Source: a virus. Taken from it: 64,000 nucleotides of DNA. Each line of letters starts with the position of its first letter. The first letter of the stretch is position 1. This document shows, in pieces, positions 2,268 to 42,612 of this stretch. The stretch lies in IMG/VR virus record IMGVR_UViG_3300032240_003128. One strand, 5' to 3'. The translations under genes and the position numbers were made by a program. Below the pieces are notes generated by a model, which ran no database searches, had not been told where the DNA came from, and saw only the letters and a program-made list of their open reading frames with translations.

Positions 2268-3077
2268 ATGCATTTTATTGAATGGGCTGGCAAATCACCT
2301 GACGTGATTTTTGGATTTGATAAAGGAATTCCATTAAAAAGACAAAATGTTTATAATGAAGAACCAATAGAACCTTTAAAAATTGAAAGCGTAATTGAAG
2401 AAATTGTTAATTTAGGCAAAATAGGGATGAAAGACCCTGTAAAAGATTTTGGTGCTATTGTAAATTATGGTAATCCTAGTCAAGTAGGATCTTTGCAGAT
2501 AAAATTTAGTCCACTTGGATCTTGTCGTGTTACGATTATGCGAAGAATTAGTGATTTGGAAGGTGATTTGACTTGGATTACTCGTTATGCTGTTCCTGTT
2601 ATTAATGATTATGAACATTTGACAGCCGAGGATATATCTACTGAAAAAATGATTGCTGTCAGGGTTCATGAATTGGCAGACTATATTGATAAAACACCAT
2701 TAGAAACACCTAAAAACAAGTATGAAAAGCTAGAAGAATTAGTTGTCATGATTGCTTCTAACATGAAACTTAAGCATCCTTCTGTGATGAATTTTCAAGG
2801 GGTCATGAGGCAAAATGACAACACTTATATAATTTATTTTTCATATAATGGATATGGAATTGAAGCACCGGGTCAAAGAAAAGTAAATCAATTTAATGTT
2901 TATATTGAATTTATCAAAGATAAAGGATTGATAAGATCATGGGGTGCAGAACACTCTGCACCCCACTTGTTATATAACTATGAACCACAACCGCCTGAAT
3001 GGGATGAATATTTTTCTTGTGATCAAAATAAAAATGAAATTGTTACAATTCTTGAGAACATTTTCAAGACTTATTGA
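2268..3077 (+). CDS. hypothetical protein
   Basis: 269 aa ORF, GGAG upstream. Confidence 0.75.
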   Translation: MHFIEWAGKSPDVIFGFDKGIPLKRQNVYNEEPIEPLKIESVIEEIVNLGKIGMKDPVKDFGAIVNYGNPSQVGSLQIKFSPLGSCRVTIMRRISDLEGDLTWITRYAVPVINDYEHLTAEDISTEKMIAVRVHELADYIDKTPLETPKNKYEKLEELVVMIASNMKLKHPSVMNFQGVMRQNDNTYIIYFSYNGYGIEAPGQRKVNQFNVYIEFIKDKGLIRSWGAEHSAPHLLYNYEPQPPEWDEYFSCDQNKNEIVTILENIFKTY

Positions 3078-3429: not shown

Positions 3430-4155
3430 CTATTGATAGATAGCCACAAGAGGTATAAACTTCTCATTATATATTTTTTTAATATCATCCACATTGTAAT
3501 CTTTATATTTTTCGTGTTCTGTCAAACTAGCAATTTCTTTTTGTATCTCTTCCGGCAATCTCTGCACCCATTCGCTACAAAAACACCACAAAGGATCAAT
3601 TTGTTTTGCTCTTATCTGAAGCAAAATTCTTTTTATATTTTTATAAAAATTTTCATATGTGAAATTTTCATTTAATGTATCTTTTAAAGAAATAATTGTT
3701 TTTTCTAAAGCAGATATTATCATTTTATCATCGAGTTTTCTTGTGATTGTTTTGGTAATCATTTTAGTTTCTTCCATCTTTTTACGCCAAACATGATATC
3801 TTTTTTCTGCTTTTTCTCCTATTAGCAAACTTGGACTTATAATTGGATCTCTAGTCTCAAGCAATTTTATTATTTCTAATTGTGCTTTGATAAATATGAA
3901 AAATTCTGCTGGTTTTGTAAATACGCTTCTCTTGTCTCTGACATATTTTAAAACATATTTATAAGCAGATTGATTTATTGCTGGTTTTAAATCATTAAAT
4001 CTAGTGTGATTATAAACTGGAAAATAATGATATTCACAATTCAAATAATATATCAAAAGGTAATAGGCAAATATCATGTTTTCATCGCCTAAAAATCTTT
4101 CAAGCTGATCGGTTGAAACTTTGTAAACTTCACGCATAAATTCCGCCTTGGACAA
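3430..4155 (-). CDS. putative helicase loader (T4 gp59-like)
   Basis: size and pattern resemble gp59 (aromatic N-terminal helix, KAEKRYHVWRKK, ILLQIRAKQIDP, C-terminal NVDDIKKIYNEKF); near a DnaB/gp41 gene; remote, by-eye similarity. Confidence 0.4.
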   Translation of the reverse strand: MSKAEFMREVYKVSTDQLERFLGDENMIFAYYLLIYYLNCEYHYFPVYNHTRFNDLKPAINQSAYKYVLKYVRDKRSVFTKPAEFFIFIKAQLEIIKLLETRDPIISPSLLIGEKAEKRYHVWRKKMEETKMITKTITRKLDDKMIISALEKTIISLKDTLNENFTYENFYKNIKRILLQIRAKQIDPLWCFCSEWVQRLPEEIQKEIASLTEHEKYKDYNVDDIKKIYNEKFIPLVAIYQ

Positions 4156-4197: not shown

Positions 4198-4453
4198 AAG
4201 TCAAAATTTTTATTTTTTTTGGCATGATTTTTGCGAATTAATAAATACTAAGTATTTATGTTTATTTGTATTTAAGAAAAACATATTTTTGTTAAGTGGT
4301 ACTAAGTTACTCTGAGCGAAGCGAAGAGTAAGTTAGTACCACTTAAACTAAAGCATCCCTAAGTACGAAGTACTTAGGGATGTATTAATACTAAATACAT
4401 AAATACTTAATTCGCAAAAATCGTGCCAAAAATCGGCAAAATTTTTTTGACTT
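4198..4453. repeat. nested inverted-repeat (branched hairpin/cruciform) element, candidate replication origin
   Basis: outer arms 4216-4241/4407-4432 pair 25 of 26; inner hairpins 4292-4346 and 4354-4382; small palindrome 4241-4259; AAGTCAAAA/TTTTGACTT ends. Confidence 0.9.
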
Positions 4454-4475
4454 TGAAAAGAAATATGCATACATT
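4447..4475 (+). promoter_or_regulatory. sigma70-type promoter for the polA-like gene (leaderless)
   Basis: TTGACT-17-TACATT, then 6 nt to GTG 4482. Confidence 0.55.
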
Positions 4476-4481
4476 TTTAGC

Positions 4482-5792
4482 GTGAGCATAAACGAAACTA
4501 TTTTCGAGCAAATCCACGACACATTTCGTGTCGAAAGTGTTATTTATCTAGAAATATTAAGCAATCCAGACCTTTCAGACAAAAAAAATCTTTTATTACA
4601 CATAAGACTTTTAGGACCAAAAGGTTCTAAATTTGAAATTAAATTACATCAAAACAACACATGTTCGTTTGTACACCATATAAGAAATTGTTTATTGCAA
4701 TTTAATCGACCAATAATTTGCTTGAATTCTAAGCTTTTTCAATCTTTCTGTTTAAAACAAGGCTGTAGAAATTTAATTGATTTTAAATTTATTTTTGATT
4801 TAAATTGGTTTGTTGATTATACAGACACCAGTTGTTCTTTTGATAGATTAAGCGATATATTTTCAACTTTTGTTAAATTTATTAAATCAGAAAATTATGA
4901 AATTTATACTAAAGTTTTTCAAAAATTAATTTGTTGTACTGTTCCATATATGGAAAATCAAGGAATCATTCTTGATGATGAAGCTACATTTGTATATCCT
5001 TATTATTCATCCAGTTTTCAAGAAAATGGTAGACTTAATTCAAAGTTAATTTCAAATAGAAACTTTAATCCACATACTTTGTCACATGAATCAAAATTAA
5101 ATTTTACACTACCAGATGATGAGATTTTTGTATCTTTTGACTTCAAAGCATTAGAGTTATATGTTCTTGCATATCTTAGCAATGATCCAAATTTAAATAC
5201 GATGTTATATAACACATGTCATCCGTATGAACAAATAGCGCAATATACTGTAAATTTAGATAGCTTTAAAGATCAAAATTACAAAGATTTGGGTAAGAAG
5301 TTATTTTTGCCAGCAATTTATGGAATATCCGCAAACAAACTAGCAGAATCATTAGGTTGTTCATTTTTGGAAGCTCAGAATGCATTAAGTAAAACAAAAG
5401 CTTTATTTTCAAAAGCTTTTGATTATGTTGTAGGTCAGATGGCTCAAGCAGAAAACTTTGGTTATTGTTTTGATTACTTTAAAAGAAAAAAGAGTTTTTC
5501 TGCAAATGATTCATATAAAGCAATGAATTTCTCTGTACATTCACCAGCTGCTGTCTTTTGTTTTATTAAGATGAATGAAATTCATTCATTTATTAATCAA
5601 AATTTCCGCCTATTGTTTTCAGTCCATGACTGTTTTGTTTTTGCTGTTAAAAAGGCTGAATTAAATTCAACAATAAAAAATATAAAAAATATTTTACAAT
5701 CAGAATTTGAAGATTACAAACCGCTCAAATTTATTGTTGATATTAAATTTGGTGAAAATTTAGGATTTTTGAAAAATTATTCTGAAATTTGA
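4482..5792 (+). CDS. short family-A DNA polymerase-like protein lacking the thumb
   Basis: motif A SFDFKALELYVLAYLSND, motif B KDLGKKLFLPAIYG, motif C LLFSVHDCFVF; MENQGIILD runs almost directly into NGRL. Confidence 0.8.
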   Translation: MSINETIFEQIHDTFRVESVIYLEILSNPDLSDKKNLLLHIRLLGPKGSKFEIKLHQNNTCSFVHHIRNCLLQFNRPIICLNSKLFQSFCLKQGCRNLIDFKFIFDLNWFVDYTDTSCSFDRLSDIFSTFVKFIKSENYEIYTKVFQKLICCTVPYMENQGIILDDEATFVYPYYSSSFQENGRLNSKLISNRNFNPHTLSHESKLNFTLPDDEIFVSFDFKALELYVLAYLSNDPNLNTMLYNTCHPYEQIAQYTVNLDSFKDQNYKDLGKKLFLPAIYGISANKLAESLGCSFLEAQNALSKTKALFSKAFDYVVGQMAQAENFGYCFDYFKRKKSFSANDSYKAMNFSVHSPAAVFCFIKMNEIHSFINQNFRLLFSVHDCFVFAVKKAELNSTIKNIKNILQSEFEDYKPLKFIVDIKFGENLGFLKNYSEI

Positions 5793-5847: not shown

Positions 5848-6402
5848 ATGAAAATATTTCAGTTGTTTAAGATTAACGCAGATGAATTTAGAGAACTTGA
5901 AGATAAATTTGGAAAACTTTGTTTGTATGCCAGTTGGCAGTTGATATCTAATAATTCTCGTAACAACCACCAGTTAGATGTTGATGATATTAAGCAAGAA
6001 CTTCTTATGTCTGTTATTAGAGCTGGAAGTTATTATAAAAGACAAACTTACATTGAATCATCGTTTGAAATTTTAGAGAAGTATGTATTAGATGATGGAA
6101 TATTTAAGAAAATTTTTGATTCTTTGAAGGATTTGTGGAAAAACAAAACACATCACGGTGCATATCGACGTAAATTTGGAGATCCTCAAGAAGAAATCTT
6201 AGAGAAATTAATTAAGAAATTTGTTCCGCTTCAACAACGTCCTGACATAAATTTACGACTTGATATTAATGCAAAATTTGTTATTTACACGAAGCAGATA
6301 ATATGGAATGCTGCTCGTCATGTCGGGAAAAAAATTACTAAAGAGAAACATCTTCGAGTGGGACAGGTATCATTAAGTGAACACGAACATTTGTACATTT
6401 GA
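5848..6402 (+). CDS. sigma-factor region-2-only protein (gp55-like late sigma candidate)
   Basis: DVDDIKQELLMSVIRA and KFVIYTKQIIWNAARH...QVSLSE match sigma70 region 2; no region-4 HTH; AGGAGG SD. Confidence 0.6.
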   Translation: MKIFQLFKINADEFRELEDKFGKLCLYASWQLISNNSRNNHQLDVDDIKQELLMSVIRAGSYYKRQTYIESSFEILEKYVLDDGIFKKIFDSLKDLWKNKTHHGAYRRKFGDPQEEILEKLIKKFVPLQQRPDINLRLDINAKFVIYTKQIIWNAARHVGKKITKEKHLRVGQVSLSEHEHLYI

Positions 6403-6410
6403 GGTTTAGG

Positions 6411-7940
6411 ATGACCCAACTCACGGAAGATCAACAAAAGCTGCTGGAAAATATGCTTCAGCAGCAGAACACACAAACCAAATTCCGTTGGGATGAAAAT
6501 TTCCAACGTAGAATGCTTGGTATTTTTTTAACTGATAGAAATTTCTTGCTTCAAGGAAAGTCTTTAATTTCGCCAGAATATTTCACTAATGAAGTGCATG
6601 TTGCGGCATGTAAAATTTTATTTAAACTTTTTGAAGAACATCCTTATGGTCTTCCAGATAAGATGATCATAGAAAATGATTTACTCGAAAAAGTAAAAGA
6701 CAAATCTGATTCTGTAAGAATGTATTACAAATCAGAACTGGAATGTCTGTATGAGTTCTTTATTCCAAACCAAGCTTCTAGAGATATACTTTACAACAAA
6801 CTGGTAAACTTTTCTAAGATTCAAAGTCTTAGGATAGCAATGGAAGAATCTCAAAGAGATTTAAAGAAAAACCCTGATTCTGAAGAAATGTGGTCTAAAG
6901 TTTACGAAAGATTTCGTAATTGTATGCTTGTTTCTAAGAATTTTGATGCAGGATTTCAGTATTTCACCCAAATAGATCAGTTTTTTAGTGAATTAGTCAA
7001 AGACGAAGAAAGAGTTGATAAATTTACATCAGGATTTTTGTCTATTGATTTTGAAATATCAGGTGGTGGACCAAGACGTGGTGAAATTTATGCTTTTATT
7101 GCTCTTCCCGGTGTTGGTAAATCTCTTGCTTTGGTCAAAGCCGCTGTTGAAAATGTAAACAGAGGATTCAAAGTTGCCTTCGTATCTGTCGAAATGGATT
7201 GGGTTTCCATTTCAAAAAGGTTTACTTCAGCTTATGCTGGAATGCCTTTTAATAAACTTATCAATCAAAAAGAAGAAATTAAAAGTATACTTGAATACAA
7301 AAGCATGGAATACGAAGACAAAAACAGATTGATTGTAAAACAATTTCCTGCCGGAAGTATTGATGTTAACGATATACGGGCTTATCTGAATCAATTAGAA
7401 TTGTATGGATTTTCTCCAGATGTTTTGATTGTTGATTATCCCGGTGAAATGAAAGATACTCCCGGAGTTCCTGTTTGGGAATCTAAGTATAGAATTATTA
7501 GAGACTTAAGAGGTTTGGCTTGCGAAAAGAAAATGCTTGTTTTTACAGCAATGCAGCCAAATAAATCTGCTTCTGATCTTTCAGCTTCTGAATTTATTGA
7601 GGAGGGTAACATTGGTGCATCATTTGATATGTTTAAGCCTCTTGACGGTTTGTGGTCTATTAACAGAACTACCGATGAGGCTAACGCTCAAGTTGGTAGA
7701 ATTTTCGTTATCAAAAGTAGAAATGGTAAATCAAGATACCATTTCCCTGTAGAATACAATCAAGATATGCTTACTATTTCAGAAATTGATTTTGATAAGT
7801 ATAAAACAAAAATGCACAATAAAGCTCAACAAGACGCAAATACTTATAGCATAACAACTGATACGACTAATATTTCTCATATTGATCCACCTAAAAAGGG
7901 CAAGAAGAAACAACAAAATCCTTCAAATCCTATTGACTAG
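6411..7940 (+). CDS. dnaB: replicative DNA helicase (DnaB/gp41 family)
   Basis: ALPGVGKS, SVEM, LIVDY, TAMQPN and KSRNG motifs. Confidence 0.9.
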   Translation: MTQLTEDQQKLLENMLQQQNTQTKFRWDENFQRRMLGIFLTDRNFLLQGKSLISPEYFTNEVHVAACKILFKLFEEHPYGLPDKMIIENDLLEKVKDKSDSVRMYYKSELECLYEFFIPNQASRDILYNKLVNFSKIQSLRIAMEESQRDLKKNPDSEEMWSKVYERFRNCMLVSKNFDAGFQYFTQIDQFFSELVKDEERVDKFTSGFLSIDFEISGGGPRRGEIYAFIALPGVGKSLALVKAAVENVNRGFKVAFVSVEMDWVSISKRFTSAYAGMPFNKLINQKEEIKSILEYKSMEYEDKNRLIVKQFPAGSIDVNDIRAYLNQLELYGFSPDVLIVDYPGEMKDTPGVPVWESKYRIIRDLRGLACEKKMLVFTAMQPNKSASDLSASEFIEEGNIGASFDMFKPLDGLWSINRTTDEANAQVGRIFVIKSRNGKSRYHFPVEYNQDMLTISEIDFDKYKTKMHNKAQQDANTYSITTDTTNISHIDPPKKGKKKQQNPSNPID

Positions 7941-7981: not shown

Positions 7982-8407
7982 ATGGTTGAAAAAATTGGTT
8001 TGGGTGACAAGGAATGGACAATTGATTCTCGTGATCTTAATTTTACTGATGCAACACTTAATGCATTTTTTGAAAAAGTTGGCGCAATTATTGACTATGT
8101 AGGTGCTGGTCACGCCTTGGCAATGAAATTACATTCAATTGCTGAACTTGAATATAAGAAGAAATATATTGATAAGTTCAAAGATTTGAAAGATCAAGGA
8201 AAATCTGACAAAACAGCAGAGCTTTCTGCCGAAGGCGATCCAGAATCAATTGATTTGAAAAGACAAATAATTGAAGCAAAATATAACAAAGATAGACTTT
8301 ATGCTCATTTGTCTGCTTTGAATGCAGCTAGAGAAGACGGTCACAATAGAGGGCATTTTTTACGCAAGGAAATGGATAAGCTCAACATGGACATTGCTGA
8401 GAGATAA
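7982..8407 (+). CDS. UvsY-like recombination mediator
   Basis: 141 aa helical protein with UvsY-like size and pattern, in a cluster with UvsW, UvsX and SSB. Confidence 0.5.
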   Translation: MVEKIGLGDKEWTIDSRDLNFTDATLNAFFEKVGAIIDYVGAGHALAMKLHSIAELEYKKKYIDKFKDLKDQGKSDKTAELSAEGDPESIDLKRQIIEAKYNKDRLYAHLSALNAAREDGHNRGHFLRKEMDKLNMDIAER

Positions 8408-27175: not shown

Positions 27176-27207
27176 TTCGTACCCCTTTGCTTAACTATAT
27201 TTATTTC

Positions 27208-28578
27208 ATGGACACTTTTTTTTCTTGTTTTTTCGAAAAACTTTATAAATCAAATTTAAAAATCAACATTATTGGAGATGTGTTGATTGATGAATATTAT
27301 CAGGTAGATGTTGATAGAATTAGTCCAGAATTTCCCATTCCTGTTCATCGTTCTTTTGATGACAAGCCAAATAAAATTTTTTGCGGTGGTGCAGCAAATG
27401 TCGCAGCACAATTTAAAAATTTTAATGTAGATGTTAACCTTATATCTCTTATGAATCCGCAGGCAGAAAAAATTTGCAATTTAAATGGTATTAATACAAA
27501 TTATTCAATCATAGACTCTAAATTTGTCAATTCAAAGAAAAAAAGATTTTATAAGGATTCTCATCCATTGATCAGATGGGATGTAGAAAAACCACAATTA
27601 GGAATTTCTAATATTGATTATTATTTAAATGAAATAAAAATACCTGAAGCTGATATTAACATTTTTTCTGATTACGACAAAGGTTTGTTTTCAACAAATT
27701 GGCACAAGAAATATTTAAAACAAAGCAAATCACTTATTGATCCCAAGAAAAACCTTAATATTTGGGAAGGATGTTATTTGTTTAAACCTAATGCCGTTGA
27801 AGCAAAAAGATTTGTCAATAAGGAAAAAGTTGAAGATCAGTTGAGATGGCTTCAAGCTTTGCTAGGATGTAATAATGTTGTTATTACAAATGCAGGGGAA
27901 TGTGTAGATGCAATCGATGATAATGAAAAAATATATCATGTAACACCTAGCAAGAAAGTAATAAAGCCCGAAAGTGTGATTGGTGCTGGAGATGCATACA
28001 TGGCTTTCTTAGCCATGTCTTTAGGTGTAGGTGTTGATCTATTAGAATCTTTAAATATTTCATTTGAAGCTGGCATTAATTATGTTGCTAATCGTTATAA
28101 TAAACCTTTAAATCCATCAGATTTTTTCGTTGAAGACAAAGTGATTAACAATCCTGCTGTATTGAGAAATAGGGATTTTAGCCTAGTGTGGACTAATGGC
28201 TGCATGGATCTTACACATTACGGACACATATCATCTTTAAAACAAGCAAAATCTTTTGGTGACAAACTTTGTGTTGGTGTTAATTCAGATGAGAGTATAG
28301 CTAAATTGAAGGGTGAAAAAAGACCAATCATACCTTTGTCTCAAAGAATTGAAATGTTAAAAGCAATAAAATATGTAGATTTTATTTTTGTTTTAGAAGA
28401 AGATTTTCCTCAAAGTGTCATTGAATTAATTAAACCAAATGTTTTGGTTAAGGGTGAGGATTGGCGAGGTAAAAAAATTGCCGGTGCCGATGTTGTTGAT
28501 AGAATTGAATTCATTCCTTTAGTTGAAGGTCTATCAACAACTAGCATTATAAATAAAATTATTCATGCTTATGGATAA
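27208..28578 (+). CDS. hldE: bifunctional ADP-heptose synthase (PfkB kinase plus nucleotidyltransferase)
   Basis: RISPEFPIPV, GGAANVA, SDYDKG, GAGD; TNGCMDLTHYGH, GVNSD and KG..RP. Confidence 0.9.
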   Translation: MDTFFSCFFEKLYKSNLKINIIGDVLIDEYYQVDVDRISPEFPIPVHRSFDDKPNKIFCGGAANVAAQFKNFNVDVNLISLMNPQAEKICNLNGINTNYSIIDSKFVNSKKKRFYKDSHPLIRWDVEKPQLGISNIDYYLNEIKIPEADINIFSDYDKGLFSTNWHKKYLKQSKSLIDPKKNLNIWEGCYLFKPNAVEAKRFVNKEKVEDQLRWLQALLGCNNVVITNAGECVDAIDDNEKIYHVTPSKKVIKPESVIGAGDAYMAFLAMSLGVGVDLLESLNISFEAGINYVANRYNKPLNPSDFFVEDKVINNPAVLRNRDFSLVWTNGCMDLTHYGHISSLKQAKSFGDKLCVGVNSDESIAKLKGEKRPIIPLSQRIEMLKAIKYVDFIFVLEEDFPQSVIELIKPNVLVKGEDWRGKKIAGADVVDRIEFIPLVEGLSTTSIINKIIHAYG

Positions 28579-30516: not shown

Positions 30517-32589
30517 ATGGTTACTTTGAGCCAGTTTGTAGACAAGAATAAGCTAGAGCAATTCAACAGATTAAATGAAGTTGTTAGTTTTGAGCAATAT
30601 CTCAATCGTTGTTACACCAATCCAAAACTTGTCAGAAATTCACATCAACGAATTTATGACATGATTGTGTCGCAGGGCACATCTGAAATTGAAAAGTACC
30701 GCAAAAAGGTAATTGTTTATAATTTCTTTGAAAAACACGAACAAATCAAGGTCTTTGGAATTGAAGAACAACTTGAATCACTAGTTGCACACTATAAAGG
30801 TGCTGCTGGTGGCTACGGACCAGAAAAGCGAATCCTTCTTCTTTGCGGTCCTGTAGGATCTGCAAAGTCTACAATTGTTCGTCTTATTAAGCGAAGCATG
30901 GAAGATTATTCTCAAAATGATGCTGGTGCTTGGTTTACATATCGTTGGATCAATTTGCCAACAGGTAGCGATGGTATCTACACTTCTGACACTTGTGAAT
31001 GTCCAATGAATGAAGAGCCGCTCAAGCTTCTTCCATTCGATGTTCGCAAAAAGATTCTTTATGAACTTAACGGCATACACAAAGAACAAGCTGATGTGTC
31101 GCAACACACAACTCTTTACACTCTTGACGTTAAGGGTGAAATTAATCCTAAATGCAAGTTCTTTTATGACAAGTTGCTTGAAAAGTATAATGGTGATTGG
31201 ACTCAAGTTCTTTCCAATCACGTTGAAGTTATTCGCAAGAATTACAATGAAGCCAAGCGTGTAGGTATTGCTTCATTCCAGCCAAAGGATGAAAAAAATC
31301 AAGATAGCACTGAGTTGACAGGAGACATCAACTTTGCTTTATTGCCAACATTTGGTAGTGATTCTGACCCTCGCTGCTTCAATTTTGATGGAGAATTTGA
31401 AGTTGCCAACAGAGGTATCATTGAATTTATTGAAATGTTAAAGCTTGAAGTTGCATTCCTTTATGACCTTTTGGGTGCATCTCAGGAACAATCTATCAAG
31501 CCAAAGAAGTATTCTCAGATTTCGATTGATGAATCAATTATTGGGCATACCAATATGCCAGAATATGAGAAGCTCAAGAACAATCAGTTCATGGAAGCTC
31601 TTAAGGATAGAACTGTCAGAATTGAGATTCCTTATTTGCTTGAATGGAGCAAGGAACTCAAGGTTCTTGAACAGGATTATAATTCAGATAAAATCAAGCA
31701 GCATATTGCTCCACACACTCTTGAAATTGCAGCTTTGTTTGCTGTTCTTACCAGATTGGAAGATGACAAAGATAATAAGATCACGATTACGGAAAAGGCT
31801 GATCTTTATGATGGTAAGATGTTACCCGGATGGACTGTTGATCGTGTGAAAGAACTTCGTGAAAAGAATCCCAATGAAGGGATGATGGGTCTTTCTGCTC
31901 GTTATGTTCAAGACAAAGTTTCTTCTACCTTGTCAAGCCGACACGATTATATCAATCCATTTATGGTTCTTAATGCGCTTAAGAGTGGTCTTGATAATCA
32001 TTCTTTGATTACCAATAAAGATCTTGTTCGCAAGTATCAAAACTGCATCACTTTGTCTACCAAGAAGTTAGATGACATTCTGAAAAACGAAGTGCAAAAG
32101 GCTTTGGTTGGTGATGAAGAGGCAATTGTAAGGTTGTGTGCTAACTATATCGATAACCTTATGGCTTATATTAACAAGGCAAAGATTCTTAATAAGATTA
32201 CTGGCAGAGAAGAAACAGCTGATGAGAAATTGATGCGTTCTATTGAATCCAAGATTGATGTTCCAGAATCGACTTGTGATGACTTCCGTAGAATGATTGC
32301 AGCTTTTATTGGTGATCTTGCTGTTAAGGGTAAGATTTTCCGTTGGGACAGTAATCCTCTTCTTAAGAAAGCTTTAGAATCTAAGTTGTTTGAAGATACG
32401 AAGGATCATATTAAGTTGAGTGCATTCTCCAGTGGAGCAAGCACTGTTGATCCTGATGTGCAGAAGAAAATCGATGCTGTAAAACAGCGTTTGGTTGATA
32501 AATATGGATACAATGAACAGTCTGCAACAGATGTTCTAGACTATGTTTCAAGTATCTTTGCTAGGGGCGATCTAGCAGATAACGACTAA
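30517..32589 (+). CDS. prkA: PrkA/YeaG AAA+ serine kinase-family protein
   Basis: GPVGSAKS, CPMNEEPL, DEKNQDSTELTG, ANRG and HIAPHTLE motifs. Confidence 0.95.
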   Translation: MVTLSQFVDKNKLEQFNRLNEVVSFEQYLNRCYTNPKLVRNSHQRIYDMIVSQGTSEIEKYRKKVIVYNFFEKHEQIKVFGIEEQLESLVAHYKGAAGGYGPEKRILLLCGPVGSAKSTIVRLIKRSMEDYSQNDAGAWFTYRWINLPTGSDGIYTSDTCECPMNEEPLKLLPFDVRKKILYELNGIHKEQADVSQHTTLYTLDVKGEINPKCKFFYDKLLEKYNGDWTQVLSNHVEVIRKNYNEAKRVGIASFQPKDEKNQDSTELTGDINFALLPTFGSDSDPRCFNFDGEFEVANRGIIEFIEMLKLEVAFLYDLLGASQEQSIKPKKYSQISIDESIIGHTNMPEYEKLKNNQFMEALKDRTVRIEIPYLLEWSKELKVLEQDYNSDKIKQHIAPHTLEIAALFAVLTRLEDDKDNKITITEKADLYDGKMLPGWTVDRVKELREKNPNEGMMGLSARYVQDKVSSTLSSRHDYINPFMVLNALKSGLDNHSLITNKDLVRKYQNCITLSTKKLDDILKNEVQKALVGDEEAIVRLCANYIDNLMAYINKAKILNKITGREETADEKLMRSIESKIDVPESTCDDFRRMIAAFIGDLAVKGKIFRWDSNPLLKKALESKLFEDTKDHIKLSAFSSGASTVDPDVQKKIDAVKQRLVDKYGYNEQSATDVLDYVSSIFARGDLADND

Positions 32590-32604
32590 TATGAGGATTG
32601 AAAA

Positions 32605-33798
32605 ATGCCCCGCCGTATAGACTCTGATCATAAAGACTTCAGAGACGTAGTCAGTGGCAGGATTAGAAAGAACTTAAAAAAGTTTATTAAAAGTGGTGAA
32701 ATATTTCGCCACCGTGGTAAAAATGGCAAAGTATCAATAAAGATTCCTGCTATTGATATACCTCATTTTCTCCATGGTAGGAATCCCAATGGAGCAGGGC
32801 GTGGAGAAGGTGAACAAGGCGATACAATTGGCAAGGATAAAGGTCAAGGCAAAGGTCAGGGCAATGGTGCTGGTCAGGATGAAAGCGAAGGCATCATTGT
32901 CCAACTAGACATGGAAGACATTCTTCATTTTATGAAGGATGAATTGATGCTTCCTGATCTTAAGCCTAAGCAACAAGCCAATCTCGAAGATGTAAAAATC
33001 AAATACAATAATATTTCTTTAGTTGGTCCAGAATCTCTTAGACATACTCGTCGCACAATGTTGACCGCAATGAAGCGTCTCTGTGGGACAGGTGAAATTA
33101 ATAATTTGTATGAAATTCCCGGAATTAAAGACAAAGTTAAAATGATCAATCCGATTAATTCGGACAAGAGATATCGTCAATACAAAGAAATTAGTTTTCC
33201 ATCTAGCAATGCTGTTGTTATTTTTGCCAGAGATGCAAGTGGATCAATGGATGATCGAAAAGTAAATGTTGTTTCCGACATGGCTTATTGGATTGATGTT
33301 TACATTAGAAACTTTTATGAAAGAGTCGAAAGGCTTTATGTGTGGCATGATGTTCAAGCACACGAAGTAGATGCCAAAGATTTTTACAGAATTAGAAATG
33401 GTGGAGGAACTACTTGCTCCACAGCGTTAGAATTGGTTGCCAAACAATTTGAAAATAGATTTCCACCAAACAATTGGAATATTTATTTCTTTTATTTTAC
33501 CGATGGTGAAAACTACGACAATGACAATGAAGTTTTTACAGCATTGTTGAAGAAAGAATTTCCACAAAGCGTTGTCAACCTTGTCGCTATAACTCAAATC
33601 GGTGCTTATTCTTACAAGAATAGTGTTGCAGAAGCTGTTGAAAAAGCAATAGTCGAAGGTGATTTGGAAGATAACGTAGTTGTTGCAGAAATTCCATTTG
33701 ATGTTATCAATAGTGAAGAGAAGAGAGACGAAGCTATTTTGAAAGCTATTAAGGATATTCTGGGTACTCCTTTCCAAAGTGCTAATCAGGTGTTTTAA
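32605..33798 (+). CDS. yeaH: YeaH/YhbH (DUF444) vWA-like protein
   Basis: IDIPHF, Gly-rich linker, DASGSM, GGGT and TDGEN motifs. Confidence 0.9.
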   Translation: MPRRIDSDHKDFRDVVSGRIRKNLKKFIKSGEIFRHRGKNGKVSIKIPAIDIPHFLHGRNPNGAGRGEGEQGDTIGKDKGQGKGQGNGAGQDESEGIIVQLDMEDILHFMKDELMLPDLKPKQQANLEDVKIKYNNISLVGPESLRHTRRTMLTAMKRLCGTGEINNLYEIPGIKDKVKMINPINSDKRYRQYKEISFPSSNAVVIFARDASGSMDDRKVNVVSDMAYWIDVYIRNFYERVERLYVWHDVQAHEVDAKDFYRIRNGGGTTCSTALELVAKQFENRFPPNNWNIYFFYFTDGENYDNDNEVFTALLKKEFPQSVVNLVAITQIGAYSYKNSVAEAVEKAIVEGDLEDNVVVAEIPFDVINSEEKRDEAILKAIKDILGTPFQSANQVF

Positions 33799-33800
33799 TT

Positions 33801-35396
33801 ATGTCAGATAAATTTCTATTTGGTTCGCCTGTTCTCTTTGGATCAGCAACCACTCCGGGTGTGCCTATTCCAGAAGAATTGCAAAAACACATTCCTACTA
33901 TTTTTCAAGCGTGTAAAGATTTTGGTTTAGATTTTTATCCTACAATTGTTCAAATGCTTTCTCATGACGAGATGTCTGAAGTTGCATCTTACGGTGGTTT
34001 TGCAGTAAGATTTCCTCACTGGAAATTTGGCGCAGAATACGAAGAAATGCAAAGAGGATATCTGTACGGCAATCATAGAATATATGAAATGGTGATTAAT
34101 TCTTCACCATGCTACTTATATTGCTTAAATTCAAATACTTTGCTTGACAATATCACAGTTATTGCTCATGCTCTTGGGCATTGTCACTTTTTCAAAAATA
34201 ACATTCATTTTTCTAGAACTAATACAAATGCTCACAATGAGCTTGCCAACAATGGATCAAATGTAAGAAAGTATATGTCTCGATATGGAAGAGAAACTGT
34301 TACTGAATTCATGGATCATTTGTTCAGAATAGAGACTCTTGTTGATCCAATGAATATCTGGAAAGAAAGAAAAGCAAAAGACGTTGTCATCACTGATAAT
34401 AAAGATTATGTGTTTCCACGAAGAATTAAAACAAAAAATGATTACATGGAAGATTGGATTAATACTAAATCTTTTATAAAAGCTCAAAACAAAAAGATTG
34501 AAGAACGTGAGATTATGCAAGATCTCAATCTTCTTATTACTCCAGAGTCTGACATATTTGGTTATATTAAGGAAAATGCACCGTTCAAACCTTGGCAACG
34601 AGATATTGCAGAGATTCTTTACAACGAAGCAATTTATTTTAGCCCACAAGGCAAGACAAAAGCATTGAATGAAGGTCTTGCAAGTTATTGTGATTATCAC
34701 ATCATTGCAAAGCAAGGTTATTGCAGCCTTGGTCAAGATACAGAAGATGCTGGAATCGTAGAATATTCAATCCACAAGGCTGGAGTTCTTGGCGGCAAGT
34801 ATAGTATGAATCCATACAAACTTGGATTTACCCTTCTTATGGATATTGAGGAAAGATGGGACAAGGGTAGATTTGGCACAGATTATGAAAATTGTACAGA
34901 TCCTATTGAAAAAGAAAACTGGGATCTAAAGATTGGACTGGGTAAGCAAAAAGTTTTTGAAGTATGCAAAAACTATGATGATTATCAATTCATCAATGAG
35001 TTCTTCACTAAAGATTTCTGTGAAAAGAATGAATTCTTTGAGTACAAGCGTTATCCAACAGGTGAAGTTAAGATCGAAAGCAGAGATTACAAAAAGATTA
35101 AAAAGGAATTGTTGCGCAAGTACATTAACCGTGGTTTGCCTAATATCAAACTTATTGAACCAAGGTTTAAAGGAAATATGTTTTTGATGGAACATAAGTG
35201 GGAAGGCATAGAACTTTATAAGGCTTATGCATATGAAGTCATGAAGTCCATATGTTTTCTTATGAGACAACCAGTTGTATTACAAACAAAAAACCATAAT
35301 GGCGATGAAGTTTTTTATTATTGCCAAGATATGAATGGTGATTATAGTGCTGCTGATCCCAAAACAATTACACGGGAGCAACTAAACAAGTTATGA
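33801..35396 (+). CDS. spoVR: SpoVR/YcgB-family protein
   Basis: RFPHWKFG, IYEMVIN, AHALGH..FFKNN, NEGLASY and NPYKLG motifs. Confidence 0.93.
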   Translation: MSDKFLFGSPVLFGSATTPGVPIPEELQKHIPTIFQACKDFGLDFYPTIVQMLSHDEMSEVASYGGFAVRFPHWKFGAEYEEMQRGYLYGNHRIYEMVINSSPCYLYCLNSNTLLDNITVIAHALGHCHFFKNNIHFSRTNTNAHNELANNGSNVRKYMSRYGRETVTEFMDHLFRIETLVDPMNIWKERKAKDVVITDNKDYVFPRRIKTKNDYMEDWINTKSFIKAQNKKIEEREIMQDLNLLITPESDIFGYIKENAPFKPWQRDIAEILYNEAIYFSPQGKTKALNEGLASYCDYHIIAKQGYCSLGQDTEDAGIVEYSIHKAGVLGGKYSMNPYKLGFTLLMDIEERWDKGRFGTDYENCTDPIEKENWDLKIGLGKQKVFEVCKNYDDYQFINEFFTKDFCEKNEFFEYKRYPTGEVKIESRDYKKIKKELLRKYINRGLPNIKLIEPRFKGNMFLMEHKWEGIELYKAYAYEVMKSICFLMRQPVVLQTKNHNGDEVFYYCQDMNGDYSAADPKTITREQLNKL

Positions 35397-36518: not shown

Positions 36519-37853
36519 ATGAAGACAGTTGGTTTTGAACATCTTCATTGTCACAGCGAATACTCTGTCCTTGATGGGCTAGCATCAATTGATGAGTTAA
36601 TTTCACGTTGGTCACCACATGGCGATTATCTTTGCGTGACAGACCATGGATTGATGGGTGCTATCCCCAGTCTAATCACAAAGACAGAACAAGCTGAAAA
36701 GAAATTACAGCCTATTTTTGGCTGCGAGCTTTATGTGAACTCTATTCACAATGAGCCAACAGAAACAGAAGATGCTAGAGATAAATTTATAAAAAATTTA
36801 TCTCCACAAGAATTTGAAAATTTCAAAGTATCCAGTCACATCTTGGCAATTGCGGTTACGAATAAAGGTTATGAAAACCTAACCAAGCTTTGCAGCCTTG
36901 GCTGGAGTCAAGGGTTTTATCGCAAGCCTAGAGTAAATCACAAAACTCTTCAACAATACAAAGAAGGAATTGTGTTTACTTCTTGTTGCTGCGCTTCTGA
37001 AGCTGCCAGAGCTTTGCGTGTGCATGGAAAAGAAATAGCAGAATCTACTGTCCTGAAATATAAAGATATGTTTGGTGATAATTTTTACCTTGAAATGATG
37101 CTTTTAGATTTTGAGTATCAAAGAGAATATGATCAGTTTTTAGTTGAAATGCATATTAAACATCAGATTCCAATGATTATTACTAATGATGTGCATTATG
37201 CATATCAAGAAGACAGCAAATATCAAACTTTGATGATGTTGGTAAACACTAAAAGAACATTAGCTGAAATTGAAAAGTTGAAAGCTGAAAATGCTGATGT
37301 GTTTGAATTGCAAGATAGAAATTTATGGATGAAAACAGAAGAAGAATTGAATCAGAAATGGGCTGAGAAATATTCTGATGTGATTCCTTTGGAGATTTAC
37401 GAACAAGCCAAGATGAATACTGTTAAGATATGTAAGATGGCATCTGGTGTTAAGTTAGACAGAAGTGTTAAATTACCTAGATTGAATGATGATGAAGGCT
37501 CTTTAAAGGATTTGGTATTGAAAGGTATGTTTTACAGAGGAATATCCAAATCAAATCGTATTTACACAAAACGTGTTGCAGAAGAATTGGATCTTATTTT
37601 TAGGAAACAATTTGCTAGTTACTTTTTAATAGTCAAGAGTTTTACCGATGAAGCTAGAAGAAAATGCCAAGAGATTACAGGCTTGGATGGTGTCTATGCG
37701 GTTGGACCCGGTCGAGGTTCTGGTGCTGGTTCTCTCGTCTTATATTTACTTGGTGTTACTGACGTAGATCCTATCAAGCACGATCTTCTGTTCTCACGAT
37801 TCCTGTCAGAGAACAGAGGTAGTCAAGCTGTGCTGAAGTTTAGTCAATCTTGA
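36519..37853 (+). CDS. dnaE: DNA polymerase III alpha, N-terminal part (PHP domain plus first part of palm)
   Basis: HLHCHSEYSVLDG, TDHG, GCE, NDVHY; GPGRGSGAGSLV, DPIKHDLLFSRFL; stops before PDxDxD. Confidence 0.92.
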   Translation: MKTVGFEHLHCHSEYSVLDGLASIDELISRWSPHGDYLCVTDHGLMGAIPSLITKTEQAEKKLQPIFGCELYVNSIHNEPTETEDARDKFIKNLSPQEFENFKVSSHILAIAVTNKGYENLTKLCSLGWSQGFYRKPRVNHKTLQQYKEGIVFTSCCCASEAARALRVHGKEIAESTVLKYKDMFGDNFYLEMMLLDFEYQREYDQFLVEMHIKHQIPMIITNDVHYAYQEDSKYQTLMMLVNTKRTLAEIEKLKAENADVFELQDRNLWMKTEEELNQKWAEKYSDVIPLEIYEQAKMNTVKICKMASGVKLDRSVKLPRLNDDEGSLKDLVLKGMFYRGISKSNRIYTKRVAEELDLIFRKQFASYFLIVKSFTDEARRKCQEITGLDGVYAVGPGRGSGAGSLVLYLLGVTDVDPIKHDLLFSRFLSENRGSQAVLKFSQS

Positions 37854-37868
37854 TTGAAGTTTATATTA

Positions 37869-39776
37869 TTAATTGCTTTTAAAATCATCTAATTTGTCAA
37901 TATTTTCTTGATTTAAAATTTTTGCCATGTCATCTTTGTTTATTATTTTCCTTGCAAGCAATGATTTAATATGGTCGGCAGATAATTTGTTAATGTTATC
38001 TGGACCCAATGCTTCTATAATTTCTTTTCTGGCAGCGTTGTTGTATCCCTTGCCACTAAGACAAGCAAAAACATTATTAGCAGATAATTCTGTTTTATAT
38101 GTAATTATAATCTTTATTATTTTGTATGTTTCAACTTGATAAAAGACAAGATTATCAACACTATTATCAGATAATTTATTCATATTGCGTGAACCTAAGA
38201 TTCTTGCCATTTCATGTTTGTTTTCTGATCGTTCAAGCAAATTATAGACGTGAAAATCACCTAATTTATCAATATTATTTGAACCTAATAATTCTGCCAT
38301 TTTATATTTATAAGGTGCTTCGTTAAGCAATTCATAAGCATAATCAGCAGTTAATTTATCTATATTATTTGAACCTAAGATATTTGCTATTTCTGTTGAT
38401 TCAGAACTATTGTATTTCAACAAACTATAGACATCATGACCTGTTAATTTATCTATATTGTCTTGACCTAATTCTTCTTTAATTTTATATTTATTTTTTG
38501 CACTTTTGATAAAATACAAAACATTCTCATCAGATAATTCTGATTTTTTAATTATCTCTGATATCAAATTTTGATTTTCCGTTCTATTAGCAAATACTAT
38601 CTTGCTATTAAGATCCAATGAGTTGACATAACCGCTTGTGTTTTTGGCAAAATCAAATTGATAATTACTCAAATTTTGCAATTTTCCTAATACAAATTCT
38701 TTCTTTTGATCATCAGTAAGTGTGTTAAAATCTTCATCTGTCATCTTATCTACAACTTTCAAATACATAGGGAAAACTCTAGGATCAGGATCATTCTTGG
38801 CAAATTCGAAAGCTATCCTGTCAGTGTATAATTTTAAATTTTGTTCCCAAATTTCGGGTTCTGTTGTTGTCCAAGTGCTTTCAGGAATACCTTTACTTGC
38901 CAAATATCTTTTATATTCATTTATACTTGTATATCCATTGATACCAATTTTTGATCTTGTGTCTTCTGGGTCTCTAGAATGTTTGTTTTCAGCATCAACC
39001 CACTCAGAAGATTTACCTTCTGGAGCTACACCCGGATTAACATATCTGGCTGGATCATTTTCATCTTTATTAAAATCGAAGACAAAGTATTGAGTTTGAT
39101 GATAACGTATTCTGTAATCAAACCAATGTGATGCCGAAGTTGAACTGGAAATGCACCATCTTTGGTTTTTACCAAATATTCTACATATGTCTGGCGTATC
39201 GCCTTTGAATACCCAAACATTATCGCCTTTGGCTGCTAGGTTTTTTTGATATTTTCTTTCTCCAGCTATTGGGTTGAATAAACCTGATTTTTGTTCGTAT
39301 TTAGTTAAACTGCCTTGGATTGAGTGTAATTCTGATTCAAATTTTGTAAAATCATTAAATTCTTCAATTTTTTTATCTTTGTTTATATAAATTTTATTGT
39401 TTTTCACTTCTAAGCTAATGATTTCGTTGCCGATGAACCTTCTGAGAAGGTTCATCATTTCTGTTACTCTGTTTTTATCTTCGTTTTTGAACAAAAGAAA
39501 AGTGTCAAATTCTGGTTTAGTTATTTGATTTGTGTTTAATTTGTCTTGATAGAATTTAGTTTGTCCATCTTCTTGCTTAATTAATTTTTGTTTGATTAAT
39601 GGAAATCTTTCTCTCAATCTGGCAAATGCAGCTTTTCTATCAACTGGATCTGGTTCATCTTCAAGTTCTTTAATAAAAGCTGCAAGTTCATCTTTAGGCG
39701 ATTTATCCTGTTCTAATGCTCCTTTTATTTGAGCATCTAATGTTTCAGACAATACAAACCAAAGCTTGAAGTTCAT
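37869..39776 (-). CDS. virion-type protein with WC-motif domain and C-terminal ~37-aa helical repeats
   Basis: MNFKLWFVLSE; FGKNQRWCIS; repeated LG.NNIDKL units. Confidence 0.75.
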   Translation of the reverse strand: MNFKLWFVLSETLDAQIKGALEQDKSPKDELAAFIKELEDEPDPVDRKAAFARLRERFPLIKQKLIKQEDGQTKFYQDKLNTNQITKPEFDTFLLFKNEDKNRVTEMMNLLRRFIGNEIISLEVKNNKIYINKDKKIEEFNDFTKFESELHSIQGSLTKYEQKSGLFNPIAGERKYQKNLAAKGDNVWVFKGDTPDICRIFGKNQRWCISSSTSASHWFDYRIRYHQTQYFVFDFNKDENDPARYVNPGVAPEGKSSEWVDAENKHSRDPEDTRSKIGINGYTSINEYKRYLASKGIPESTWTTTEPEIWEQNLKLYTDRIAFEFAKNDPDPRVFPMYLKVVDKMTDEDFNTLTDDQKKEFVLGKLQNLSNYQFDFAKNTSGYVNSLDLNSKIVFANRTENQNLISEIIKKSELSDENVLYFIKSAKNKYKIKEELGQDNIDKLTGHDVYSLLKYNSSESTEIANILGSNNIDKLTADYAYELLNEAPYKYKMAELLGSNNIDKLGDFHVYNLLERSENKHEMARILGSRNMNKLSDNSVDNLVFYQVETYKIIKIIITYKTELSANNVFACLSGKGYNNAARKEIIEALGPDNINKLSADHIKSLLARKIINKDDMAKILNQENIDKLDDFKSN

Positions 39777-40140: not shown

Positions 40141-42612
40141 ATGAACAGCATATCTGTCGAATCTTTTAACAAAATTATTAATAATCAGTTTAAGAAATTT
40201 CCTTTTCAGGATGATCCACGATATCAATTCAGACTTAGATACGAATTATTAGAAATAGAAACTCAGAATTGTTGCGATTATTTTATCGAATTAGTCAGAC
40301 AAAGGAAAAAATTCCCCAATGAGAACAATTTGTTAGTTCCTGTTCTGCTTGGCATTTGTAATGAGTACAATATTGAAGAAATGCCAAAAACCAAGACAAA
40401 TGAGTTTCCTGATGTTGACGTTGATTTTTTAGCAGATGTTAGAGATTATTTAAAGAATGAGTTTACGCCTAGCCAATATAAAGCAGAAAATACTTGTTCT
40501 ATTGGAACTTATGGTAGATATGCTTTGAAGAGTGCCATGATCGATATGGCACGAATTTATGGATACGACCGACAAGAAGTTTTAAACATTACAACAAACT
40601 TAAGAATGAAAGATGAAGATGGAGATGAATTGACATACGAAGAAGCTCTTGAAATGTATCCTGAATTGAAATCTTATATGGACAAATATCCAGAATTAGC
40701 ATTGGCTGTACAAAAACTTCTTCACAGAGTGCGCAATACTGGTAAGCATGCTGGCGGTGTAATTGTTGCCAAAGATGAGATCAACAAGTTTGTTCCTTTG
40801 ATGAAAACGACTGGTGGCGATCAATTAGTTTCTCAGTTTGTTGAAGGTCTAGCAACACAAGAATTAGGACCAATTGGTCTTGTGAAATTCGATTTGCTTG
40901 TTGTTTCTGCTTTGGAACAGGCAGGTCATGCTGCCAAGATGATAAAAGATCGGCATGGCATCAAAGTGATTTGCGGGACCAATCATGATTGGGACAAAAC
41001 TGATTATCTTAACGATGATAAAGCCATATCTTATGCTAATGAAGCAGATTTAATAGGAATATTTCAATATGACAGTAATGGAATTAGAGAAGTTGTAAAG
41101 GCTTCTGGTATTAACAGTTTTGACGATTTAGTTGCGATTGTATCTTTGTACCGTCCCGGTCCATTGAATGCTGAGATGGATCAGGTATTTATTAAAAGAA
41201 AAACTGGACAAGAAGAATATGTTATTCATCCTGTACTTGATCCTATTCTCAAATCAACTTATGGTGTTCTTGTTTATCAAGAGCAAGTAATGAGACTGCT
41301 TAATGTTGTGGGTAAGATTCCATTGAAAGATTGTGAAGCAATTAGAAAAGCCATTTCTAAGAAAAAGGTGTCTACATTTGTAAAATATAAAGAACAATTT
41401 ATTGAAAATGGAATGAGCGTTCTTGGAACAATTAGAGAAGAAGTCACAGAGATATGGAAAAACCTCGAATTTTTCAGTGCCTATGGTTTCAATCGCAGTC
41501 ATGCAGTAAGTTATACCTTTATTTCAAGCCGTCAACTATATTTGAAAGCTTATTATCCTTTGGAATTTTTTACTGCTCTGTTGATGTTGGAGGCTAATGA
41601 AGAAAAGAAGCGCATTTATATTACAGATGCACAGAATCATGGAATTGAAGTTAGAGTCGTTGATTTGAATAAGAGCAAGGCTAATTTCTCAATACACGAT
41701 AATGCTATTTATATTGGATTCGGTAATATTAAAGGCATAGGAATGGATACTGCTAATAAGATTGTGGCGTTACAACCATTTAAAGATGTGGACGATTTTC
41801 TTCGTAGGTTTGGTACTGATTCAAGCGTATTGAAAGCTTTGATTCCGTTGAAGGTGTTTGGAGAAGACATAAAGAAAGCTTATAATTATTGGCAATCTTT
41901 TATGTCGAAAAATAAGAAAGTTATAGACAAGAACAAGAGATCTAACAAGTCTTATCTTGAGCTTAAGAAAACTGTGCTTTCTTTGTTGCCTGAAAAATAT
42001 TGGAATCTAGATTTATCTGAAGAGCTTTTTACCATTCTTAAGTCAATCCATGATTCTGCGGATGTTAACAAGTTATATAAAAAGTGGATAAGGATAAATT
42101 CGAAAGAAGAGGCAAAGATTGAAATTTCTTATGAAGATTTTGATGATGATGACATGGTGATTGAAGACAAAGAAGTATTGCTTGAACTAAACGATATTTG
42201 TGTTGCTGAGAGAAAGCATTATGGTTTTCAGTTTACTTGTAGGCTGAAAATGATGAAGATGTATAATGACAATTGTACGTTTGATCGAGTCATTAGCTCG
42301 CATGCTATGGGTGCTACCAAGCATATGGTTCAAGTTGAAGTCTTGGATGTAAATAAAAGATATTCAAAATCTGGTAAACCTTATTGTCAATTGGTAGCCA
42401 TGGATAGTAATTTTAGAGTTGAAAGAATTAATGTTTGGGAAGATGACTATTCTGTATTCAAGCATTTGTTAGAGGTTAATAAGTGTTTGTCTATGCAAGT
42501 CAAACCACCTTCTAATGGGTTTTCTACTTATAGTTTGAATTCTCCACCTAAGCATAGAAGACACTTACTGCCATCGTCAGAAATGGATTTTAGAATTGTT
42601 TTGATAGACTAG
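40141..42612 (+). CDS. dnaE: DNA polymerase III alpha, C-terminal part (catalytic aspartates, fingers, HhH, OB)
   Basis: FPDVDVDF, GKHAGGV, LVKFDLL, GIFQ, LYRPGP, VYQEQ, YGFNRSHA and IKGIG motifs. Confidence 0.93.
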   Translation: MNSISVESFNKIINNQFKKFPFQDDPRYQFRLRYELLEIETQNCCDYFIELVRQRKKFPNENNLLVPVLLGICNEYNIEEMPKTKTNEFPDVDVDFLADVRDYLKNEFTPSQYKAENTCSIGTYGRYALKSAMIDMARIYGYDRQEVLNITTNLRMKDEDGDELTYEEALEMYPELKSYMDKYPELALAVQKLLHRVRNTGKHAGGVIVAKDEINKFVPLMKTTGGDQLVSQFVEGLATQELGPIGLVKFDLLVVSALEQAGHAAKMIKDRHGIKVICGTNHDWDKTDYLNDDKAISYANEADLIGIFQYDSNGIREVVKASGINSFDDLVAIVSLYRPGPLNAEMDQVFIKRKTGQEEYVIHPVLDPILKSTYGVLVYQEQVMRLLNVVGKIPLKDCEAIRKAISKKKVSTFVKYKEQFIENGMSVLGTIREEVTEIWKNLEFFSAYGFNRSHAVSYTFISSRQLYLKAYYPLEFFTALLMLEANEEKKRIYITDAQNHGIEVRVVDLNKSKANFSIHDNAIYIGFGNIKGIGMDTANKIVALQPFKDVDDFLRRFGTDSSVLKALIPLKVFGEDIKKAYNYWQSFMSKNKKVIDKNKRSNKSYLELKKTVLSLLPEKYWNLDLSEELFTILKSIHDSADVNKLYKKWIRINSKEEAKIEISYEDFDDDDMVIEDKEVLLELNDICVAERKHYGFQFTCRLKMMKMYNDNCTFDRVISSHAMGATKHMVQVEVLDVNKRYSKSGKPYCQLVAMDSNFRVERINVWEDDYSVFKHLLEVNKCLSMQVKPPSNGFSTYSLNSPPKHRRHLLPSSEMDFRIVLID

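Follow-up and report, generated by a model that had tools for sequence, protein, structure and literature searches.

A thumb-less family A DNA polymerase that heads the replication block in large uncultured T4-like phages

Introduction

The stretch of viral DNA considered here, hereafter the window (64,000 nucleotides of the IMG/VR virus record IMGVR_UViG_3300032240_003128, with a G+C content of about 32%), carries between positions 4482 and 5792 a gene for a 436-amino-acid protein of DNA polymerase family A, hereafter PolA, from which the thumb is missing altogether. The gene belongs to a replication block that comprises genes for a UvsW-like helicase (554-1972), two proteins of 269 and 241 amino acids, PolA itself, a protein of 184 amino acids, a DnaB-like helicase, a dCMP deaminase, a gp32-like protein that binds single-stranded DNA (SSB) and a UvsX/RecA-like recombinase. 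The sole full-length match to PolA in a set of 50,697 phage records came from LR756511.1, an uncultured phage of 595 kb (26% identity), and a T4 Gp23-type capsid gene is present on one related contig. The PolA gene is part of the core replication block in a lineage of large T4-like uncultured phages, of which the main polymerase is probably the C-family DnaE.

In a polymerase, the thumb is regarded as holding the primer-template duplex, and as giving processivity and frameshift fidelity. A first-pass annotation of the window, made from the sequence alone, had already described PolA as thumb-less and proposed a specialised distributive polymerase, terminal extender or DNA-binding initiator, for which a DNA hairpin upstream of the gene could stand in for the missing thumb. 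The present analysis bears out the description of the protein but dissociates it from the hairpin.

Architecture of the polymerase

PolA matches the Pfam family DNA_pol_A (PF00476) with an E value of 1.1e-25 and 90.9 bits (cut-off of 34.3), the match covering profile positions 101-378 of 381 and leaving the first 100, thumb included, unmatched. The catalytic residues of motifs A, B and C, namely the Asp, Lys, Tyr and His-Asp, lie where the first-pass annotation had placed them (D220, K272, Y280 and H382-D383), and the short interval between motif 1 and the GRL motif, from which it had deduced the loss of the thumb, is confirmed: MENQGIILD occupies residues 157-165 and GRL residues 183-185, 17 residues separate D165 from G183, and the motif-1 Glu and the GRL Arg have 25 residues between them, as opposed to 126 in Escherichia coli DNA polymerase I (Pol I; E541 to R668). 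When aligned with E. coli Pol I by hhalign, residues 158-430 of PolA fall on Pol I 642-926 with 98.3% probability, and the N-terminal profile follows Pol I 334-557 colinearly and has the motif-1 helix at its end.

The predicted structure, once superposed on Pol I fragments, contains no thumb either. [quoted passage not shown] The entire chain superposes on Pol nu, Klenow, Bst and KlenTaq (Foldseek, VIA-align), the best structural match being KlenTaq 296-832 (Z of 31.4, root-mean-square deviation of 3.2 A, 391 residues aligned). Because the whole chain superposes on KlenTaq and its relatives, residues 1-157 can be assigned to an exonuclease-like domain together with the motif-1 helix. About 100 residues, that is the entire thumb, are gone and a tight turn is found instead.

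As for the N-terminal domain, motif inspection and hhalign concur that the DxE of Exo I, the Asp of Exo II and the YxxxD of Exo III are lost although the domain fold is retained, in keeping with the first-pass annotation, which had seen no exonuclease motifs. The third carboxylate of the polymerase site, i.e. the Glu of motif C, is not retained, and the helix preceding motif A is short in the model (residues 202-207). Judged from sequence and model together, PolA is by homology a member of family A, but an atypical one since it has no thumb.

Diversity and conservation of the family

An exhaustive search retrieved 1775 cluster representatives at E ≤0.001 and 256 at ≤1e-10; more than 150 clusters (50% identity), with lengths of about 420-445 amino acids, were found at E <1e-24, and the best 150 are nearly all 400-460 amino acids long. 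In the atlas, the clusters of the PolA family are 97-100% viral, and the family was found in freshwater and other metagenomes. Close relatives of PolA (63-79% identity) all measure 434-439 amino acids, and the longer database forms (507-545 amino acids) bear no extra Pfam domain and probably stem from long start calls.

Residue conservation was counted over 143 aligned members that are just 25-35% identical to PolA. Strictly invariant are D220, D383, the GRL Arg (R184) and G281, each in 143/143; K272 is present in 142, the steric-gate residue E225 in 140 and H382 in 136 members, while position 280 is Tyr in 111 and Phe in 32, and the position equivalent to Phe762 of Pol I is Leu in 135. The Asn/Gln of the minor-groove motif are invariant or nearly so across the family, as are, nearly, K84 and D106 in the exonuclease-like domain. 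The Lys and the Cys that the first-pass annotation had reported in place of the motif-B Arg and the motif-C Glu are indeed present in PolA but prove to be features of its clade: the family has Arg at position 268 in 126 members (Lys in 15), and the third residue of motif C is Gly in 112, Cys in 13, Ala in 12, Ser in 3 and Glu in 3. The thumb gap spans 21-30 residues in 142 of the 143 members.

Pseudogene-like decay was looked for and not seen. The dN/dS ratio of the gene lies between 0.13 and 0.26, in both halves, and the catalytic residues are conserved throughout the 143 relatives; on these sequence comparisons, the gene is under purifying selection and not decaying.

Genomic context

The neighbourhood of PolA was surveyed at 84 loci with some 58 distinct PolA sequences, 80 of them from IMG/VR and four from other sources. 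The gene for the 184-amino-acid protein lies downstream of PolA in 84/84 loci, immediately so in all but one, DnaB is found in 83 and the gene for a 141-amino-acid protein in 82; in 16 distinct loci, the start of the 184-amino-acid gene overlaps the PolA stop by 4 nucleotides, and in most others it is at most 13 nucleotides away. UvsX-, gp32- and UvsW-like genes also occur near PolA in related loci. The coordinates of the features of the window are collected in Table 1.

Table 1. Coordinates of the polymerase gene, its parts and associated features in the window
Feature	Position	Strand	Basis
Thumb-less family A DNA polymerase gene (GTG start, 436 amino acids)	4482..5792	+	Open frame, Pfam DNA_pol_A, model, selection
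Vestigial 3'-5' exonuclease-like N-terminal domain and motif-1 helix (residues 1-157)	4482..4952	+	Colinearity with Pol I 334-557; superposes on the N-terminal domain of KlenTaq/Bst
Thumb stump, two short strands and tight turn (residues 162-173)	4965..5000	+	DSSP, residue counts, hhalign junctions
Motif A, catalytic Asp220 and steric-gate Glu225	5139..5156	+	Alignment with D705 and E710 of Pol I
Motif B (O helix), K268, K272, L276, Y280, G281	5283..5324	+	Family counts
Motif C, His382-Asp383-Cys384	5625..5633	+	Family counts
Nested palindrome with two inner hairpins (4292-4346 and 4354-4382, GAA loops)	4203..4445	.	Inverted repeats, divergent intergenic gap
Sigma-70-like promoter candidate (TTGACT, 17 nucleotides, TACATT)	4447..4475	+	Consensus scan; ends 6 nucleotides before the GTG
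Conserved 184-amino-acid gene, probable sigma region-2-like factor	5848..6402	+	Synteny, helical model, sigma domain 2 matches
DnaB-like replicative helicase	6399..7940	+	PHROG 19 (E 5.7e-57), Pfam DnaB_C
DnaE part 1, PHP domain and start of the Pol III alpha core	36519..37853	+	Pfam PHP, DNA_pol3_alpha positions 3-100
DnaE part 2, remaining Pol III alpha core with fingers and HhH	40141..42612	+	Pfam DNA_pol3_alpha 97-259, DNA_pol3_finger, HHH_6

The model of the 184-amino-acid protein is all-helical (pLDDT of 84), and in a wide VIA search its top structural matches are mostly to sigma domain 2, with modest Z values of 6-8 and a large insertion of about 70 residues; a few members of its family also give weak PHROG sigma matches, while a profile search against PDB sequences returned no match and Foldseek none for the model. 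Taken together, this is moderate evidence that the protein is probably a gp55-like late sigma factor. The protein ends in a conserved S-L-S-E-x-D-Y-L tail. The other small genes of the block, encoding proteins of 269 (2268-3077), 241 (3430-4155, minus strand) and 141 amino acids (7982-8407), have relatives in 60, 48 and 82 of the 84 loci, respectively, and their products found no Pfam, PHROG or PDB sequence match in profile searches.

Regarding the other replication enzymes of the lineage, the first-pass annotation had pointed out that the phage encodes DnaE and had concluded that PolA is not the replicase. DnaE is indeed present, split over two genes in the window, and is found in 4/4 large related records (225-595 kb), which hold no PolB and exactly one PolA each, the thumb-less one; because DnaE accompanies it in this way, PolA is probably not the main replicase. 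Three other large related records break DnaE at this very point of the Pfam profile (about 98-100 of DNA_pol3_alpha), and LR756511.1 has it unsplit, as a frame of 1183 amino acids. Between the two DnaE halves of the window lies a minus-strand open reading frame of 635 amino acids (37869-39776) with no Pfam family. A gp61-like TOPRIM primase is encoded in 5/6 related records, two of the close clade among them.

Several further features of the lineage are worth recording. In related contigs (L004, 17686-19971; L007, 1-2235), a UvsX/RecA-like gene bears an intein with a LAGLIDADG endonuclease and a UvsW-like helicase gene one of the Hom_end type. In the window itself, positions 30517-35396 encode consecutively an AAA serine kinase resembling PrkA, a DUF444 (YeaH-like) protein and a protein resembling SpoVR, a trio associated with stress or sporulation in bacteria, and positions 27187-28578 a protein of 463 amino acids with PfkB-type sugar kinase and cytidylyltransferase-like domains, which resembles the bifunctional HldE-type enzymes.

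Upstream of PolA, the nested palindrome folds as single-stranded DNA with -73.2 kcal/mol (z of -15.4); it is the sole such GAA-loop hairpin structure in the 64-kb window, and one of its two hairpins holds GCGAAGC. No Rfam family was found in the upstream gap, all matches being far below gathering scores. In the close clade (PolA identity of at least 62%), both inner hairpins are kept, and the stem of the second shows compensatory changes beneath a fixed A-C/GAA/G-T top. Relatives at 26-35% PolA identity have no such hairpins, yet share the thumb deletion and gene order; most of them retain an upstream gap of 400-800 nucleotides and six loci have no gap at all. Because these distant relatives keep both the deletion and the order without the hairpins, the PolA family is not tied to the hairpin. 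The proposal that the hairpin replaces the thumb is therefore not upheld, and the co-occurrence of thumb-less PolA with hairpins, once surveyed, turns out to be confined to the close clade. On comparative grounds, hairpin and polymerase are linked by local synteny only, and the palindrome is best described as an independent element, confined to the close clade, of a divergent region with a control or origin-like nature, and as a candidate origin or operator, rather than a partner of the enzyme.

Next to the palindrome, the sigma-70-like element is a putative promoter. The close clade keeps the pair TTGACT, 17 nucleotides, TAnATT as well as the GTG start, before which no Shine-Dalgarno sequence is found. 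Because the -10 element ends 6-7 nucleotides before the GTG, the arrangement suggests that the PolA message would be leaderless or near-leaderless and GTG-initiated.

Physiological role

PolA is probably a functional and selected auxiliary polymerase of a DnaE-based replisome, distributive and devoid of proofreading. In this respect, the specialised distributive polymerase of the first-pass annotation remains a reasonable deduction from a thumb-less, exonuclease-dead and selected core accompanied by DnaE, once its tie to the hairpin is removed. Reduced to a vestigial exonuclease-like domain, the palm and the fingers, the enzyme would use deoxynucleoside triphosphates and synthesise DNA, because the steric-gate Glu is kept; because there is no thumb to grip the primer-template duplex, it would bind the duplex weakly and act distributively, for which the deletion of the thumb tip in Klenow is a precedent. 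The loss of both proofreading and thumb would lead to DNA being made in short patches, and short patches fit an enzyme in which proofreading is lost. Candidate jobs are gap filling between Okazaki fragments and the extension of 3'-ends in recombination or repair intermediates, the likeliest setting being lagging-strand maturation, recombination-dependent replication or repair beside the DnaE replicase, to which bulk synthesis would be left. A reading of PolA as an RNA polymerase was considered separately and rejected on account of the steric-gate Glu in 140/143 members.

Several observations weigh against such an auxiliary polymerase. The motif-C Glu matters for catalysis in Klenow; because it is swapped for Gly, Cys or Ala in nearly all members, the activity of PolA could be low or altered. 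Besides, a Leu stands at the Phe762 equivalent and a Pro within the O helix. PolA is also the least conserved protein of its block, with 26-35% identity compared with about 50% for the 184-amino-acid protein and about 43% for DnaB. A processivity partner may stand in for the thumb. Lastly, the Pfam FEN family (PF02739, 5'-3' exonuclease) gave no match in four related records and thus points to no partner for Okazaki-fragment processing, although this counts for little since a T4-type RNase H may be too divergent for the profile.

Some of these points would suit a pseudo-enzyme with little or no catalysis left, which the replisome would retain for a structural or DNA-binding role: the motif-C Glu is missing in 140/143 members, the thumb and the exonuclease site are lost, and PolA evolves faster than its neighbours. 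Pseudo-enzymes, however, normally lose their catalytic residues, whereas the metal-binding Asp pair, the Lys and Tyr/Phe of motif B, the Arg of GRL, the steric-gate Glu and the minor-groove Asn/Gln are here invariant or nearly so among very divergent members; moreover, the T7-type RNA polymerases of the same superfamily are functional with His-Asp-Ser at motif C, and a dead enzyme is accordingly improbable. Somewhat less so, but still unlikely, is that PolA itself carries out the main replication and owes its processivity to a clamp, the helicase or another partner replacing the thumb, with DnaE as the accessory. PolA does head a conserved block next to DnaB, gp32 and UvsX, DnaE is in two genes here and in three relatives, and in the phages that encode the comparable polymerase divPolA1 it is the latter, not the 'regular' polymerase, that sits in the conserved replication context (PMC11348598). 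Yet PolA has neither a proofreading domain nor a thumb, and no added domain or terminal tail is visible in it, nor any extra Pfam domain in the long database forms; within the block no protein is less conserved, and DnaE occurs in every large record tested, unsplit in LR756511.1.

The fixed neighbour of PolA raises the question of initiation, in which PolA and the 184-amino-acid partner would start DNA de novo on single-stranded DNA beside DnaB, perhaps at the upstream hairpin, in the manner of a primase or of an initiator specific to an origin. Sigma domain 2 is known to bind -10 DNA in single-stranded form, which would suit such a partner, as would the adjacency of the two genes in 84/84 loci, their 4-nucleotide overlap in 16 distinct loci with DnaB next, and the short helix before motif A; an A-family precedent exists in CCPol-MP (PMC7581432, PMC10061031). 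This is nevertheless doubtful, more so than a dead enzyme: a gp61-like TOPRIM primase is already present in 5/6 related records (two in the close clade), a resemblance to late sigma factors suffices on its own to explain the strong conservation of the 184-amino-acid protein, the hairpins are lost outside the close clade, and CCPol, unlike PolA, keeps a shortened thumb. A more specific two-part enzyme, in which the translationally coupled, sigma-2-like partner holds a specific single-stranded DNA element and presents it to the open, thumb-free active site so that DNA is started or extended beside DnaB at defined sites, is a distant prospect only; if true, the CCPol-MP primase would have in this pair a second analogue that evolved independently, dedicated to initiation at an origin or at fork restart. 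Least credible of all is the original idea of the folded hairpin DNA as a cofactor in place of the thumb, for which the palindrome has its position 37 nucleotides upstream of the start codon, its great stability as single-stranded DNA (z of -15.4), its covariation in the close clade and its uniqueness in the window. Against it, more than 40 distinct loci have the thumb deletion but no such hairpins, six loci lack any upstream gap, a cis DNA element cannot serve an enzyme needed genome-wide, and a location between divergent promoters makes a role as operator or origin more ordinary.

The significance of PolA resides in the complete removal of the thumb across a large natural family, in which selection still acts on the catalytic residues and the gene keeps its leading place in the replication block of huge phages that use DnaE. 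The family provides a natural test case for what an A-family polymerase made of palm and fingers is capable of, and for the division of labour between C-family and A-family enzymes in a phage replisome. Biotechnology may also gain from PolA a compact enzyme that is free of exonuclease.

Relation to known polymerases

With the large fragments of Pol I, namely Klenow, KlenTaq and Bst, PolA shares the fold of the exonuclease-like domain, palm and fingers (Z of 29-31, root-mean-square deviation of about 3.2 A, around 390-405 residues aligned), as well as motifs A, B and C, GRL and the minor-groove Asn/Gln motif; the exonuclease-like domain of KlenTaq is likewise inactive. PolA differs from them by the absence of the thumb residues (roughly Pol I 549-645) and of a 5' nuclease domain, a shorter exonuclease-like domain, and, in its family, His-Asp-Gly/Cys for His-Asp-Glu and Leu for Phe762. 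The deletion of the thumb tip of Klenow preserved activity at the expense of processivity and fidelity, according to the account given of it in a later paper (Minnick 1996, as cited in PMC10061031). The reclassification of PolA proteins in 2023 recognised broken or extended thumbs and no thumb-less subfamily (PMC10201439), and a literature search on thumb loss by name returned nothing on family A polymerases.

In the staphylococcal SCCmec element, CCPol-MP is an A-family polymerase turned into a primase by a small partner that binds single-stranded DNA, beside a helicase, and the helix before motif A is short in CCPol as in T7 RNA polymerase, which is argued to leave room for the initiating triphosphate (PMC7581432, PMC10061031). 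The likeness to PolA lies in a trimmed A-family polymerase, the small partner gene and the helicase gene alongside, and the short helix before motif A. CCPol, however, retains a shortened thumb and is without most of the exonuclease domain; the partner of CCPol is an OB-fold protein whereas the neighbour of PolA is a helical sigma-like protein, so that the OB-fold partner of CCPol-type primases has no counterpart in the adjacent 184-amino-acid protein, which is all-helical with matches to sigma domain 2. The PolA phage lineage moreover has its own TOPRIM primase.

Divergent PolA proteins have also been reported from phages. Like PolA, the divPolA2 of barbaviruses is encoded in addition to another replicase and has an active palm, with no thumb to be recognised, but its N terminus forms a globular domain of unrelated type, its neighbourhood varies and its structure matches RNA polymerases (PMC11348598), whereas PolA has the exonuclease-like domain of Pol I and a fixed replication context. 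As for divPolA1, it was described in the Flavobacterium phage vB_FspM_immuto, its relatives and 11 metagenomic genomes of 155-190 kb, as a protein with a palm retaining conserved catalytic residues, a truncated thumb and an inactivated exonuclease domain, which is encoded alongside a 'regular' polymerase (family A, B or C) and lies, unlike the latter, in the conserved replication context with conserved replication genes downstream; it was interpreted by the authors as an active polymerase involved in replication (Virol J 2024, PMC11348598). The same traits were found in PolA, that is the palm catalytic residues, the truncated thumb, the inactivated exonuclease, the additional DnaE and the downstream replication genes. 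Both proteins measure about 440 amino acids, share the catalytic Asp in the palm and come in addition to the 'regular' polymerase, and PolA, like divPolA1, heads a conserved replication block with SSB, RecA-like and DnaB genes: those downstream in immuto are SSB, RecA, FEN and DnaB, compared with DnaB (83/84 loci), gp32-like SSB and RecA/UvsX-like here. Conversely, the phages of the PolA lineage are much larger and carry DnaE, and the two small genes that follow divPolA1 in immuto bear no relation to any conserved neighbour of PolA.

At the sequence level, the comparison was made with the immuto family, represented by the 441-amino-acid divPolA1 encoded by the first gene of MW353176, the published representatives CAB4155247 and QDP51333 (records LR796625 and MK892584) standing outside it. 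The family profiles of PolA and immuto can be aligned over their full extent (4-429 with 7-441), the deletion falling at one and the same junction, but weakly (E of 1.5e-7, 18% identity). The stump is some 16 residues longer in immuto than in PolA, and three features that the PolA family keeps are gone from the immuto protein, namely GRL, the Glu of the steric gate and the His of motif C. The hidden Markov model of the PolA family scores 107 bits with E. coli Pol I against 16.5 bits with the immuto protein, and that of immuto has no preference for the PolA family over Pol I; shared descent of the thumb deletion is hence no more than possible. The idea of a thumb-less PolA was thus already published in 2024, as a computational description, and the PolA family is by that description of the divPolA1 kind; on the alignments and profiles compared here, it stands apart from the immuto family as a sequence family of its own, which is much larger, less derived and closer to Pol I.

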